Positions 77 through 27,352 of a DNA stretch of 64,000 nt are shown piece by piece. The position numbers and the translations under genes are program-made. Position 1 is the stretch's first letter. Each line of letters starts with the position of its first letter. The notes under the pieces were generated by a model, which worked only from the letters and a program-made list of their open reading frames with translations, was not told the origin of the DNA and made no database searches. The DNA comes from an uncultured Hormoscilla sp. (GTDB lineage Bacteria; Cyanobacteriota; Cyanobacteriia; Cyanobacteriales; Desertifilaceae): NCBI GenBank assembly GCA_963921275.4, contig OZ001293.3:5568001-5632000 (forward strand), given 5' to 3'.

Positions 77-1499
77 ATGGCAATGGTAACCTCTACAATT
101 GTCTCAAAAGAATCAGAAGTCATCACGCTAGATGACTATATGCGCAACCCCCCAGAGATGGAGTGGGTGGATGGACAATTATTGGAGAAAAATGACATGA
201 CACTCAAGCACGGTCGGATGGGGTCGAGCCGGGAATCGCTTCCCGACCCTCCCTTGAGGAACCGGACTTGCGATTTTCACCGCATCCGGCTACTGGGTAC
301 TAGGCCCTTTTCATAGGTAGACTTAATAGGAATTACTTTTGTTAGCCCTTGCCGCCTGTCTTTTCTTCCCTTTCCTGGTTTAGCGAGTGGTTGTTCTGAT
401 AACCGTTAGTATCACCATTTTCAAGTCAGTTTTACCAGTTATCCATACCTTATCCTCCACTTGCGTTTCGGATTAGTTCCGTGGCTTTTTAGGATTACTC
501 ATTCCAGCAGCTTCCTAGTATCACCGACCCACGTCAGCGCTGGCTACCCAGCATCATCTACATTACTGTAGATGTTATCCCAGGAATTACCCCGGGCATT
601 CGCTTCTTGGGCCATCCCTCCCCCCGTGGCTTGCGCTTAACATCTAACTTGTCCTGATGGACAGCACACGAGAGGTTACTTCGTTCCCTAACAACATTTC
701 GCGATACCTTTAGGTCCACACTATACCCCGGGAGCTATTTGAGTACTATATTAGCCAGAGTCTAAAACTAATACTAGCTACCATTTCCTTTTTAGGCCAG
801 CGCATATAGCCTTATTTCGCTGGTTCCTTATAACGAGGCTTGCACATGTTTGCCTGCTCTAACCTTGGATATCTTTCCTAGCGGCGTCACCGGCTTAGGC
901 TGCCAGTTATCCTACATTTGAGTCCTCGCTTAGCACCACGATGATGTCGCTTCGTAGCACCGAGGACCGGTGTCACCCCCGTACCTGGGGGGAGGGGAAT
1001 TTAACCCCCATGCGGTCAGAGTTCCTGGCTAATGAAACCGGGCTAGCGTTCCGTGTTTGACCACGTTAGGCTAGAACGAATCGCACAGATTCAGTTAAGG
1101 TTAGGCTCTTACTGAAAAATTTACAAGGAATCTAATGAACAAGGAAGAGAAGTTTATACAGATGCGCCCTGTCGCACTATTGGCAGGGGACGTAAGCCTG
1201 ATGTTGCCTACCTCACCCCGGATCTGCTGGCCCAGTTTGGCAATGAGGCAGTGCTTCCTCAGAGTTTCCCCTTGATCGCTGAAATAATTTCCCCTACGGA
1301 TTTTGCCGAAGAAGTCATTGGCAAATCTCAAGAGTATTTACAGTCTGGTTGTCAGGAAGTATGGCTAGTGTTTCCTGAAAGTCGTTGGATAATTGTGACT
1401 ACTACCGAATCACGACAGGTATTTGTTTCCGGTGACGTTGTCAGTACTCAGAAAGTCCTGCTTGGTTTCAATGTAGCCGTCGATGAATTATTGGCTTAA
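77..1499 (+). pseudogene. Uma2-family (DUF820) endonuclease interrupted by an antisense group II intron, with an in-frame TGA
   Basis: ORF 77 (EWVDGQLLEK..MTLKHG) joins in frame to 1087-1499 (IQLRLGSY*KIY..RKPDVAY..LIAEIISP..EYLQSGCQEVWLVFP) when 216-1086 is removed; TGA at 1113-1115. Confidence 0.85.
216..1086 (-). mobile_element. ORF-less group II intron, subfamily A copy 1
   Basis: Minus strand begins GTGCGATTCGTT, has D5 AGCCGGATGCGGTGAAAATCGCAAGTCCGGTTC and a D6 hairpin ending CTCGACCCCATCC; 871 bp, only a handful of differences from 4446-5316; no RT ORF. Confidence 0.93.
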
Positions 1500-1534
1500 T
1501 TGATATCGGGCCATTAACAATGAACCATTAACCT

Positions 1535-1813
1535 TTATCCTGAAGAAGATTTGGGCGGACTGTCCGCAGATGATGTTTGGGAGTAGGAGGCGATCGCAAA
1601 GACATAGACTCCATGGCCCAACAGCAGCAGTAGCCAGGTGAGGGTAAACCAGTGTACCCACAGCAGGGTTTGAGGTCGCAAAATGTGGAAGAACCACAAA
1701 CCAGAATTGCTAACGGCAAAAACCGCTACATGGAAGGCAAAATTCATCCGATCGTCCAAACGTCGGTAGTCTGGGTCGCGGCGATCGGGTTGACGAGGCC
1801 ATTTCGGAGGCAT
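1535..1813 (-). CDS. Conserved cyanobacterial two-TM small membrane protein
   Basis: MPPKWPRQPDRRDPDYRRLDDRMNFAFHVAVF... with two hydrophobic segments. Confidence 0.7.
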   Translation of the reverse strand: MPPKWPRQPDRRDPDYRRLDDRMNFAFHVAVFAVSNSGLWFFHILRPQTLLWVHWFTLTWLLLLLGHGVYVFAIASYSQTSSADSPPKSSSG

Positions 1814-1920
1814 AAGCAGTACAAGCAAAATCGGGAGTAGTTCTAATATACACAGGTTGTCGTTAAATAAAGTTAGAATTCAGTAAGATGAAACGGAGCT
1901 GTACACTGAAGAACAGGTAT

Positions 1921-2450
1921 GTGAAGAACAGGCACTATTTTCGCAAGCCCAAGCTAAAACGCCGCTCTCACCTGGCGATCGCCGTTTTGCCCGATGCCGA
2001 TGCGGCTTTTCGGCCTACCGGCTACTGCAACACCACGGCATGTCACCTGAGTATTTAGCCCTTGTGGGCACTGAATACAACAGTCCGGAATGGGTAGGTC
2101 TGTTCAAACCGACCCAAATTGCCCTGGGTCAAGCCTACCGTCTGGCCATCTTTACTGGAATCTCTGGCTTGGTACTTACCGGTACCCTAGCGGTGGCCTA
2201 TCAGCTAGGACTAATTCCTTTTGAAGATATCAATTGGTTGCTGTTCGTTCCAGCTGTTAGTCTGTTCTTAGGCTTCTGTGGAGCAGCGATCGGAGCTTTA
2301 ATCGGTTTCTTCGGAGAAGGCAACACTGCCAGTTTTTATCGCCATCAGCTGCGTCAAGGTCGGTACTTGTTAATGATCGAGGGACCAGAAAAGATCGTCC
2401 GCCGGGGAAAGGAAGTTCTCAGCCAATACTCTACTCCCAGAAGACTCTAG
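1921..2450 (+). pseudogene. Membrane hypothetical protein, probable frameshift near 2012
   Basis: Upstream frame HLAIAVLPDADAAFR continues only after a frameshift into YRLLQHHGMSPEYLALVG (ORF 2040-2450, two TM helices, GRYLLMIEG). Confidence 0.55.
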
Positions 2451-25030: not shown

Positions 25031-25036
25031 CAATAA

Positions 25037-26323
25037 TTAATCTATAGCATAAACATCTTTGCCCCAGCCGATCGCATACCGGAGAGAATGAGATAAGTTT
25101 TTACTGGACATGGTAGTGAAAATTATGAGATTGATAAAGGCGATCGCAGCAGCAAGGGCGAACAGAGTATGATAATTAAATAAATCCGCAACGGTGCCAA
25201 ATGCTGGACCTGCGATCGCGATACCCAAATCAAATCCGCCCAGGAACAAACTAAAAATCCGCCCCCGTTCTTGAGGGTGGCAGCGGTCTGCCATCATCGC
25301 AGACAGGGAAGGAATAAGTATACCAAACCCCGACCCTTCTATAATGCCTGCGATTAAAAAGCCTCTGGCATCCTGGATGAAAGTCCACAAAATTAGCATC
25401 CCCAAGGCTTGCAGCAGGATAGCAATGCTAATAAACAACCCTCTGCCAAACCGCACGCTCAAGGGACCGACTGCTACGCGAGTGCAGAAGCTAGCGATCG
25501 CACTGGCAGTATAGAACCAGCCGGGATTAAGATCGACATTCATATCTTTAATAAATAAAGGCACGAATGTTGTCCGGGCTGCAAAAACCAGTGCTACTAG
25601 GAACAGCACCAGGGTAGGAATGCGGATGGGATGACTGTTTAACAAACTCCAGAATTTGTCTGATTTGGGCTTCTCTGGGAGATCCTGTGGGGTTTTCTGC
25701 ACCGATGGTTCTCTGATTTGTAAGCAAAAGACTAGACTCAATACTCCTAAAGAGGAGGTCAAGAGAAATAAAGGCCCATAACCGAATGATTCGGTCACAA
25801 CACCCTCCACAGCTGGCCCGATCGCCAGACCCAAGGGAGCCACCAACAGCATGTAGCCAATAATTTCTCCCCGATGTTGGGGGGGAGAAATGTCTGCCAC
25901 TAGGGCCAGATAGGCTGTGGTCAAGGCAGAAATACTGATGCCGTGGAACGCCCGGACTGCTATCAGCACCGGAATAGACACACCAACTAGATAGCCCAGG
26001 GGGGCGATCGCCACCACCGAGATCCCAATCAACAGAACAATTTTGCGACTACGTATGTCCGCCATCTGCCCCAGAGGCCTGCGAGACAGCAGCAGTCCAA
26101 TGGAAAATGATCCTATGACAATGCCCACATCTTGAGGAGTGCCCCCCACATGCTGGATATACAGAGGCAGGGTGCCCAGCAGAGAACCGATACTGCACCA
26201 AAACAGCAAAGCTGCCATGAACAGTCTCAGCAGGTCGTTGCGTAACTTGGGACTGAGGGTGCTAAAAACCTTCAAAACTGAATTTCCCCAGACTGAAAGA
26301 ACTTCTACTGCTCTGTCGCACAC
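25037..26323 (-). CDS. MFS transporter (true start probably TTG ~26275)
   Basis: ~12 hydrophobic segments, GQMADIRSRK motif A, ADISPPQHRG, ADRCHPQERG. Confidence 0.92.
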   Translation of the reverse strand: MCDRAVEVLSVWGNSVLKVFSTLSPKLRNDLLRLFMAALLFWCSIGSLLGTLPLYIQHVGGTPQDVGIVIGSFSIGLLLSRRPLGQMADIRSRKIVLLIGISVVAIAPLGYLVGVSIPVLIAVRAFHGISISALTTAYLALVADISPPQHRGEIIGYMLLVAPLGLAIGPAVEGVVTESFGYGPLFLLTSSLGVLSLVFCLQIREPSVQKTPQDLPEKPKSDKFWSLLNSHPIRIPTLVLFLVALVFAARTTFVPLFIKDMNVDLNPGWFYTASAIASFCTRVAVGPLSVRFGRGLFISIAILLQALGMLILWTFIQDARGFLIAGIIEGSGFGILIPSLSAMMADRCHPQERGRIFSLFLGGFDLGIAIAGPAFGTVADLFNYHTLFALAAAIAFINLIIFTTMSSKNLSHSLRYAIGWGKDVYAID

Positions 26324-26517
26324 GCAGAAACAGCTTATCTATCCTATTATGCTGTTTTACCATCCTGCTGCGCATCGCCGGTGCTGGCCAGACCCGCTCG
26401 GCTTAGAGGTAAAAAAATCAGGGCGACAACGCCCTGATTATTGCAAACATGGAGTAGAACAACAATTTATCTAGTGCTGCGTTTAACCCTCACAAATCCA
26501 ACAAGTAGATCCGTGCA

Positions 26518-27352
26518 GTGCGATTCGTTCTAGTCTAACGTGGGCAACTACGGAACGCTAGGCCAGGTCCAAACTGGTAACTCTGGTATTCATGGGGGTT
26601 AGATTCCCTCTCTCCAAGTGTGGGAGTAACACCGGTCCTTAGTGCTGCTGAGTCACATCACGGTGGTGCGGAGCAAGGACTTAAATGTAGGATAGCTAGC
26701 AGCCTAAGCTAGTGACGCCGCTAGGAAAGATGCTAATGGCTAGAACAAGCGAACCTGTGTACGCCTCGTTATCTAGAACCAGCGAAATAAGGCTTAAAGC
26801 GCTGGCCCAAAAGGGAAATGGTAGTTTGTGCTGGTTCTTGCACTTGGCCAGTATCGCACTCTAAGAACTCCCGGGGTATAGCAGGGGCCTAAAAGCATCG
26901 TGAAATGATACTAGGGAACGAAGTAACTTCTCGTGTGCTGTCTAGATTGGACAAGTTAGATGTAAAGCGCAAGCCGCGAGGGGAGAGATAGCCCGAGAAG
27001 CTAATGCCTAGGGTAACGCCTATGGATATGATGGGGTGTTCCTCATCCAGCTGACGCGGGTTGGTTAAAGTAGGAAATCTTGGGTAAGAGTATCTCTAAG
27101 ACGCCGGAGGCCTCTCGAAGGTTGGATGACTGGTAAAACAGACTTGGAAATGGTAATACTAAAGGTTATCTGGCAGCGCCGCTTACCAACCAGGAAAGGA
27201 GTGAAATCGCATGAGATGAGGGACAAGTGGAGCAATCCGTAGTAATCCTAGTAGTGACAATGCCCTACTTGCCAGTAGCCGGATGCGGTGAAAGTCGCAC
27301 GTCCGGTTCCGAATGGGAGGGTTAGGGGGTGACCCCTAGCTCGACCCCGACT
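26518..27352 (+). mobile_element. ORF-less group II intron, subfamily B copy 2 (intergenic)
   Basis: Matches 12677-13511 with one substitution that I could see (in D6); 5' flank GTAGAT-c-CGTGCA pairs with EBS2 ATCTAG and EBS1 TGCACT. Confidence 0.94.

Follow-up and report, generated by a model that had tools for sequence, protein, structure and literature searches.

Group IIB2 introns without open reading frames form a guide-diversified, genus-wide lineage in Hormoscilla that is likely mobilized in trans

The 64,000-nt stretch analyzed here (the window; contig OZ001293.3, positions 5,568,001 to 5,632,000, of the uncultured Hormoscilla sp. assembly GCA_963921275.4) holds four complete group IIB2 introns that lack an open reading frame (ORF), two of a family A (A1 and A2, 871 nt) and two of a family B (B1 and B2, 835 nt), together with one 5′ fragment (C). 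The Rfam model RF00029, which the initial annotation had suggested running, matched domains V and VI of the four complete copies above its gathering score (218-294 on the minus strand, 5238-5314, 13433-13510, and 27274-27351), and five domain I starts were found by nhmmer at the coordinates previously assigned. The boundaries proposed earlier are right for the four full introns, while fragment C matches its nearest relative, a singleton family, over 3464-3809 (91% identity over 346 nt). Within-family identity had been put at ~99% and is 99.2% for A1/A2 and 99.9% for B1/B2; A and B are 72.6% identical to each other, and C is 72 to 78% identical to either. The elements, their parts, and the interrupted gene are as follows.

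216..1086, minus strand: A1, ORF-less group IIB2 intron of family A, 871 nt, GTGCG...CCCCATCC, antisense within an Uma2-family gene
826..832, minus strand: A1 exon-binding site (EBS) 2a at 832 and EBS2 ATAAGG at 831-826
758..763, minus strand: A1 EBS1 AGACTC
1087..1100, minus strand: A1 5′ exon, with intron-binding site (IBS) 2 CCTTAA and IBS1 GAATCT
3464..3809, minus strand: fragment C, 5′ part of domain I of another family, truncated within EBS1
4446..5316, plus strand: A2, ORF-less intron of family A, 871 nt, overlapping the 3′ end of a Ser/Thr kinase ORF (5229-6602, minus strand)
4700..4706, plus strand: A2 EBS2a (4700) and EBS2 (4701-4706)
4769..4774, plus strand: A2 EBS1
4809, plus strand: A2 EBS3, a U that pairs with the A at +1
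4915, plus strand: A2 gamma nucleotide in J2/3, a G that pairs with the terminal C
5006..5236 (limits approximate), plus strand: A2 domain IV, ~230 nt, structured, no ORF
5238..5316, plus strand: A2 domains V and VI, with AGC triad and presumed branch A 9 nt from the end
11212..12676, plus strand: glutamate synthase large subunit (gltB), exon 1
12677..13511, plus strand: B1, ORF-less intron of family B, 835 nt, end CCCCGACT, sense, inside the glutamate synthase gene
12929, 12930-12935, 12998-13003, 13036, and 13145, plus strand: B1 EBS2a, EBS2, EBS1, EBS3, and gamma nucleotide, respectively
13512..16762, plus strand: glutamate synthase large subunit, exon 2, in frame only after exact removal of 12677-13511
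26518..27352, plus strand: B2, ORF-less intron of family B, intergenic, with EBS2 at 26771-26776, EBS1 at 26839-26844, and EBS3 at 26877

All five elements carry the 5′ GUGYG boundary, as GTGCG. The complete copies end in ATCC (A) or GACT (B), i.e., in CC or CU in place of the canonical AY, and these ends belong to the elements because they are invariant across copies, exact removal restores reading frames, and empty sites are precise. The final 12 nt are identical in 139 full A copies and 73 full B copies, with variable sequence beyond. One family A copy lies nested in another at position 768, and the CC is absent from the empty site. Of 313 sites, 86 acquire a long open frame on exact excision, compared to 19 and 18 when 1 or 2 nt are left behind. 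The empty gltB site, TTAGAAGAGTTTG^AGACTGC, is found in three of four congeners (the fourth has diverged there and is likewise intron-free), with no duplication. Across 61 aligned families the penultimate base is C in 43 and A in 17, and the terminal C/U covaries with a G/A in J2/3 (position 470) in 58 (C-G in 24/24, U-A in 34/36). As the terminal pyrimidine and the gamma pair hold, we treat CC and CU as variants of the AY consensus, for which exceptions are known.

The domain V AGC triad and the bulged A of domain VI are present, domain V is intact in A and B, and the consensus fold shows covariation. EBS1, EBS2, and EBS3 pair with IBS1 to IBS3, as in subgroup IIB, and the 5′ consensus GUGCGAUUC together with the CL-type affiliation of resident relatives fits IIB2. 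Delta is a nearly invariant U, so that the delta-delta′ contact yields no covariation signal. Only ~30 nt had been thought to occupy the place of the reverse transcriptase (RT) ORF; domain IV in fact spans ~230 nt and folds, with double-sided changes in 20 of 50 predicted pairs in an alignment of this region, and the description of these introns as minimal ribozymes was overstated. Three structural conjectures were discarded. The 9-nt branch spacing is not unique, since RT-encoding introns of other cyanobacteria share the end CCCCTAAT; an EBS3 in the CAAATAG loop showed no covariation, the actual site being position 364; and an IIA-like delta/+1 pairing was left unsupported once EBS3 had been located.

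The introns carry guides that match their own targets. The EBS sequences initially annotated (A, ATAAGG/AGACTC; B, ATCTAG/TGCACT; C, ACTATT) are correct. In the window, EBS1 pairs at 5 of 6 positions in all four full introns (G-U counted) and EBS2, taken in its best register, at 5 or 6 of 6, the spacer being 2 nt in A1 and A2; at some sites, A1 and A2 included, the register of EBS2 is shifted by one base. In fragment C, EBS2 ACTATT (3534-3529) fits the flank AATAG, and the EBS2a C fits the G at −14. Genome-wide, the 61 families comprise 56 EBS1, 50 EBS2, and 57 combined EBS1/EBS2 sets, and EBS/IBS covariation lies far above permutation, with scores of 4.76 for EBS1 (permutation, 2.14; maximum, 2.64) and 4.10 for EBS2 (permutation, 2.00; maximum, 2.48). 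Family A EBS1 pairs at 5.1 of 6 positions on A sites and at 2.3 on B sites. EBS3 (position 364) forms a Watson-Crick pair with +1 in 54/61 families. Flanks are distinct for 121 of the 144 A copies and 59 of the 71 B copies, with a median of 1 difference from the consensus. The complementarity thus extends to other genomic copies, the flanks are not shared as segmental duplication would have them, and the recent, relaxed EBS-directed retromobility that had been proposed is supported.

A further contact bears on mobility. EBS2a (position 255) pairs with −14 in 48/61 families (permutation mean, 19.4; maximum, 34). According to PMC8643678 (papers given by PMC number are cited from the parts of them that were accessible), the EBS2a-IBS2a pair is stabilized by the RT and required for DNA integration, hence mobility, not for splicing, and ORF-less introns keep it only under selection for trans mobility. 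Of the sequence data, its retention speaks most strongly for movement of the lineage as a ribonucleoprotein with an RT. The pairing also accounts for the A at −14, for which protein recognition had been considered and was dismissed. A purine stands at −15 in 56/61 families (one site per family) and no intron column covaries with it (best mutual information, 0.21); a protein may recognize it, as with EcI5 and TeI4h (PMC2882425).

The window is not exceptional in its host. Its local density had been called striking, yet it has 4 domain V matches where 4.3 would be expected in 64 kb. On the 6.88-Mb chromosome, there are 465 matches to domains V and VI (D5/D6) and 460 placed 5′ starts; among 455 typed ends, 401 are of ORF-less type and 50 of RT type, and 395 elements could be paired, leaving 65 starts and 60 ends unpaired. 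Intron-like sequence makes up 7.75% of the chromosome. Clustering at 95% of 356 ORF-less cores (10 of 366 paired ORF-less-type elements were dropped by length) gave 71 clusters, led by A with 144 copies and B with 71 and followed by clusters of 16, 14, 8, 8, and 7; 10 of the 71 fall outside the alignment, and one cluster, F3, combines two EBS sets. The EBS diversification noted initially is hence real but was understated, with ~70 families instead of three. Contig depth was ~5,000 on B-specific pieces versus 66 to 75 on unique flanks, which fits 71 copies, in what is probably not an independent sample.

The lineage was found in 4/4 congeners, while 36 other relatives gave short, mostly D5/D6 matches or nothing. 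The D6 pattern occurs 325 times here and 0, 70, 77, and 114 times in the four congeners, and a pattern scan of GTDB genomes returned at least 22 loci, all from Hormoscilla sp., a genus of sponge symbionts, among the matches listed. In 400 sampled genomes of the phylum, a single-sequence search with two candidates scored per genome, which may miss distant relatives, gave no matches beyond D5/D6 or short stretches of domain I. A public run under another organism code (X5) also contains a nearly identical element of family A, on an 885-nt contig with 3 differences and a depth of 70 versus 2 to 4 for unique DNA, which suggests that the A burst is common to a close strain.

Guides differ between families far more than their surroundings do. 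Between the members of 28 close family pairs, the rate of difference is 0.55 to 0.58 at EBS sites versus 0.056 elsewhere in domain I; of the 13 positions that vary most in domain I, 12 belong to EBS1-3, and the remaining one is EBS2a. Family A and a related congener copy differ at 12/13 EBS sites and at 56/853 other sites, and the flanks of the congener copy fit its new EBS. Within families the guides are almost invariant (EBS1 identical in 144/144 A and 71/71 B copies, EBS2 in 142/144 and 71/71), which fits selection between lineages, not hypermutation, and the latter was ruled out at this level. Whole guide modules also appear to be exchanged by recombination, since pairwise identities in domain I and domain II-VI segments are nearly uncorrelated (rho, 0.02 to 0.18), with linkage falling with distance, and chimeras (F10, F7, F16, and F2, with 2 to 16 copies each) change parent near the domain I/II junction. 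Genomic recombination between copies and RT template switching would fit these chimeras equally well.

Three families, F2, F3, and F4, have a mispaired domain V in 36/38 copies, at distinct EBS-matched sites (e.g., L075, L076, and L077). The GAAA loop of domain V is replaced in F2 by UCCA or AAAA. The domain V variant CTCTTYAGG occurs in 46 copies here and in none of the four congeners; the CGCTCTT patches in domain V do not reflect a genome-wide bias toward this motif, which is not overrepresented (ratio, 1.11). Introns also insert into sister introns or lie in tandem (e.g., at C1 1325884-1327625 and 5447656-5450268). In five paired cases a family A copy sits in the domain IV of another, at position 768; A copies are also arrayed in tandem, head to tail; and a site within domain I of sister introns serves as the target of F7, F10, and F35.

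As for a source of RT, the genome has ~75 maturase-domain matches and 23 full-length RT introns. Ten of these have an uninterrupted YADD ORF (588 to 596 amino acids), seven with the HNH "DH" motif. One intron-encoded protein (IEP) that was scanned has RVT_N, RVT_1, GIIM, and HNH domains and is closest, among solved structures, to the Thermosynechococcus elongatus maturase 6me0. The ORF-less elements hold no trace of such a protein: tblastn gave 0 matches to IEP remnants in 366 ORF-less-type elements, none of 76 IEP C-terminal matches is followed by an ORF-less-type domain V, and no RT-encoding member of the lineage, for which a search had initially been advised, was found in the genome or in the sampled genomes of the phylum. 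Domains I to III of the ORF-less lineage and the resident RT introns are aligned collinearly by a profile, and both keep a short AUGACAA hairpin just before domain V, a candidate protein contact. The swarm attacks its likely helpers, the RT introns: in a nine-copy family encoding a 596-amino-acid protein (C1:1056960), the ORF of 8 copies is interrupted by an antisense A intron and domain I of 7 by a B intron, and an unbroken ORF is left only in C1:2406679. An RT elsewhere in the genome acting in trans, as initially proposed, thus gains support, if indirect, from the absence of IEP remnants, the intact RT-X-HNH ORFs, and the kept EBS2a-IBS2a pair.

Insertions are depleted in long ORFs (86/313 versus 677/1,500), and those within ORFs lean to the sense orientation (55 versus 31, P = 0.013), most clearly for B (14 sense versus 2 antisense). 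Splicing of B1 from the frame-split glutamate synthase gene is likely, judging from the sequence. A proof of splicing from essential genes failed, as second copies of both glutamate synthase and metH are present. One RNA contig crosses the gltB site at ~93% likeness and most likely stems from an intron-less relative. GC skew was too flat to call a leading/lagging strand bias of the insertions.

We consider it likely that these introns form a genus-wide ORF-less IIB2 lineage with site-matched EBS1, EBS2, EBS2a, and EBS3 that spread as nonautonomous retroelements by means of the RT of resident CL-type RT introns. The transcribed intron would fold and bind the borrowed RT-X-HNH protein, with the structured domain IV as the probable contact, splice, and then reverse-splice into DNA sites set by ~13 RNA-DNA pairs and, more weakly, by the protein-read purine at −15, with the borrowed RT copying the inserted intron. 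Because the pairing is relaxed (~5/6 and 4/5), one guide set reaches >100 sites. New sets likely arise by stepwise EBS mutation, favored by access to unfilled sites, and recombination between copies would join an entire domain I, guides included, to a different domain II-VI, the pattern itself being observed in the chimeras.

Several points weigh against this interpretation. Resident RT introns resemble A and B only in short patches (72 to 90%) and differ in D5/D6, which makes cross-recognition a larger step than in T. elongatus (85 to 100% identity), and the preference at −15 is not clearly seen in their own flanks. The families are related, so that permutation tests overstate their independence, and the value of 0.056 has a built-in ceiling, low divergence outside the EBS having been the criterion by which the 28 close pairs were selected. 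On the side of splicing, a second intact gene for the glutamate synthase large subunit means that removal of B1 is not forced, the interrupted metH is a broken second copy, insertions of A in ORFs are 22 sense versus 19 antisense, and the ORF-context call is crude, A2 being scored "sense" though its true neighbor is the minus-strand kinase. No spliced RNA, lariat, or joint across B1 was seen in public-run contigs, the only form in which the runs were searched.

Alternatively, the copies could owe their spread to a cognate lineage member that encodes an RT and has since been lost, was left unassembled, or resides on a different replicon, the resident RT introns not being the helpers; we regard this as unlikely. 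Such a member could have escaped a genome that is 96.7% complete, and the ORF-less D5/D6 profile does score higher against RT introns of other cyanobacteria (44 to 52 bits) than against resident ones (9 to 25 bits). Domains I to III, however, score best against the resident introns (86 to 115 versus 28 to 59 bits), the A and B copies are very young, none of the 76 IEP C-terminal matches precedes an ORF-less-type domain V, and the 400 sampled genomes yielded nothing beyond the D5/D6 and short domain I matches. Still less credible is a directed or hypermutagenic rewriting of the guides at each insertion in place of ordinary mutation and selection. F2 and F9 differ at 4/11 EBS sites and by 0.7% elsewhere in the segment, and the congener copy of A changed at nearly all of its EBS sites, both as rewriting would predict; against it, EBS1 and EBS2 stay near-identical across A and B copies despite imperfect targets, and the EBS1 of singletons fits the flanks no better than that of A or B. 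Duplication at the DNA level or misassembly, finally, has practically no probability left and is already contradicted for A and B by distinct, EBS-matched flanks, exact ends, empty sites in congeners, and concordant depth, even though some flanks do repeat where the host repeat (an RT intron or a paralogous gene) is multicopy and some singleton chimeras may stem from rearrangement or misassembly.

Mobilization of ORF-less introns in trans is not new in itself, contrary to what had been implied; it was demonstrated experimentally for T. elongatus TeI3 (ORF-less) and TeI4 (RT) introns (PMC2882425). In both systems ORF-less introns outnumber RT introns, fall into EBS families, and insert into other introns, with A at −15/−14. 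Like TeI3-type introns, the present elements have no ORF, occur in multiple copies at EBS-matched sites, and retain EBS2a-IBS2a; derivation by ORF deletion from a close resident RT intron, with remnants, was not found. The T. elongatus set consists of 28 IIB1 introns in six families, 85 to 100% identical to RT introns and with ORF remnants (PMC2882425), in contrast to the ~465 D5/D6, at least 57 EBS sets, IIB2 type, absence of ORF remnants, patchy similarity to resident RT introns, different D5/D6, and mosaic families seen here, in a host that, from its genus, is probably not thermophilic. The lineage works like TeI3 without being that family, to judge by its sequences; what is new is the scale, the long time for which the lineage has been independent of its likely helper, and retargeting by modules.

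Other systems share single traits. Trichodesmium erythraeum IIB2 introns and twintron have the 5′ GUGCGAUUC consensus, EBS3, and a large domain IV; ORF-less introns splice there in vivo (10/17), as does one intron with an atypical domain V, and the introns number tens of copies with no 144-copy family, compared to hundreds in the present genome (PMC4649490). Cyanobacterial RT-encoding CL introns ending in CTCGACCCCTAAT (L095, L098, L101, and L107) share the domain VI type, in which the presumed branch A lies 9 nt before the end, but encode an RT and lack a full-length DNA match to the domain I of our lineage. Arthrospira platensis NIES-39 carries at least 150 introns, 79 of them without RT, and the maximum among 1,790 representative genomes was 101 (PMC2853384, PMC8919778); the present genome has ~3 times as many introns and ~5 times as many ORF-less copies as A. 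platensis, by differing counting methods, and no EBS family analysis of the A. platensis introns was found in the accessible parts of these papers. ORF-less bacterial introns have been described as rare (PMC4424553). The word "intron" is absent from the main text of the Hormoscilla genome paper (PMC6520454), and searches of a literature mostly without subscription journals turned up none that describes this lineage or a greater intron load.

The intron load thus exceeds any in the literature found, is mostly protein-less, and lies both within and between genes. It offers a bacterial model for intron multiplication and the sharing of one enzyme, which bears on the origin of spliceosomal introns, and targeting rules such as EBS2a use, register slip, and tolerated mismatches can be read directly from its hundreds of natural guide-target pairs. 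Should these RNAs indeed be moved by a noncognate RT, that enzyme would, as a promiscuous driver, be relevant to the design of targetrons. One could go further and regard the lineage as akin to short interspersed nuclear elements (SINE-like), long without an ORF of its own, using noncognate RTs and exchanging its domain I module, with F2, F3, and F4 receiving a catalytic domain V in trans from other intron RNAs. This extension seems doubtful at present; if true, it would represent a bacterial step toward a shared RNA-plus-protein splicing machine.

Several minor observations concern the surroundings. The Uma2-family gene around A1 (77-1499; Pfam) has an in-frame TGA soon after the A1 junction, even with the intron removed, and looks to have been broken independently of it. 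Just upstream of B1, at 12582-12663, GC-rich small repeats are inserted in frame in the glutamate synthase gene; they are missing in congeners, vary in length in other runs of the same organism, and presumably resemble the small repeats described in cyanobacteria. Several introns contain similar short repeats. A 31.4-kb contig of the assembly (C3), with 17.6% GC compared to 47% for the chromosome, is possibly foreign to the genome bin. Right after the glutamate synthase gene, at 16815-16838, a single Rfam CRISPR-DR28 match is probably a small palindromic repeat, not an array.

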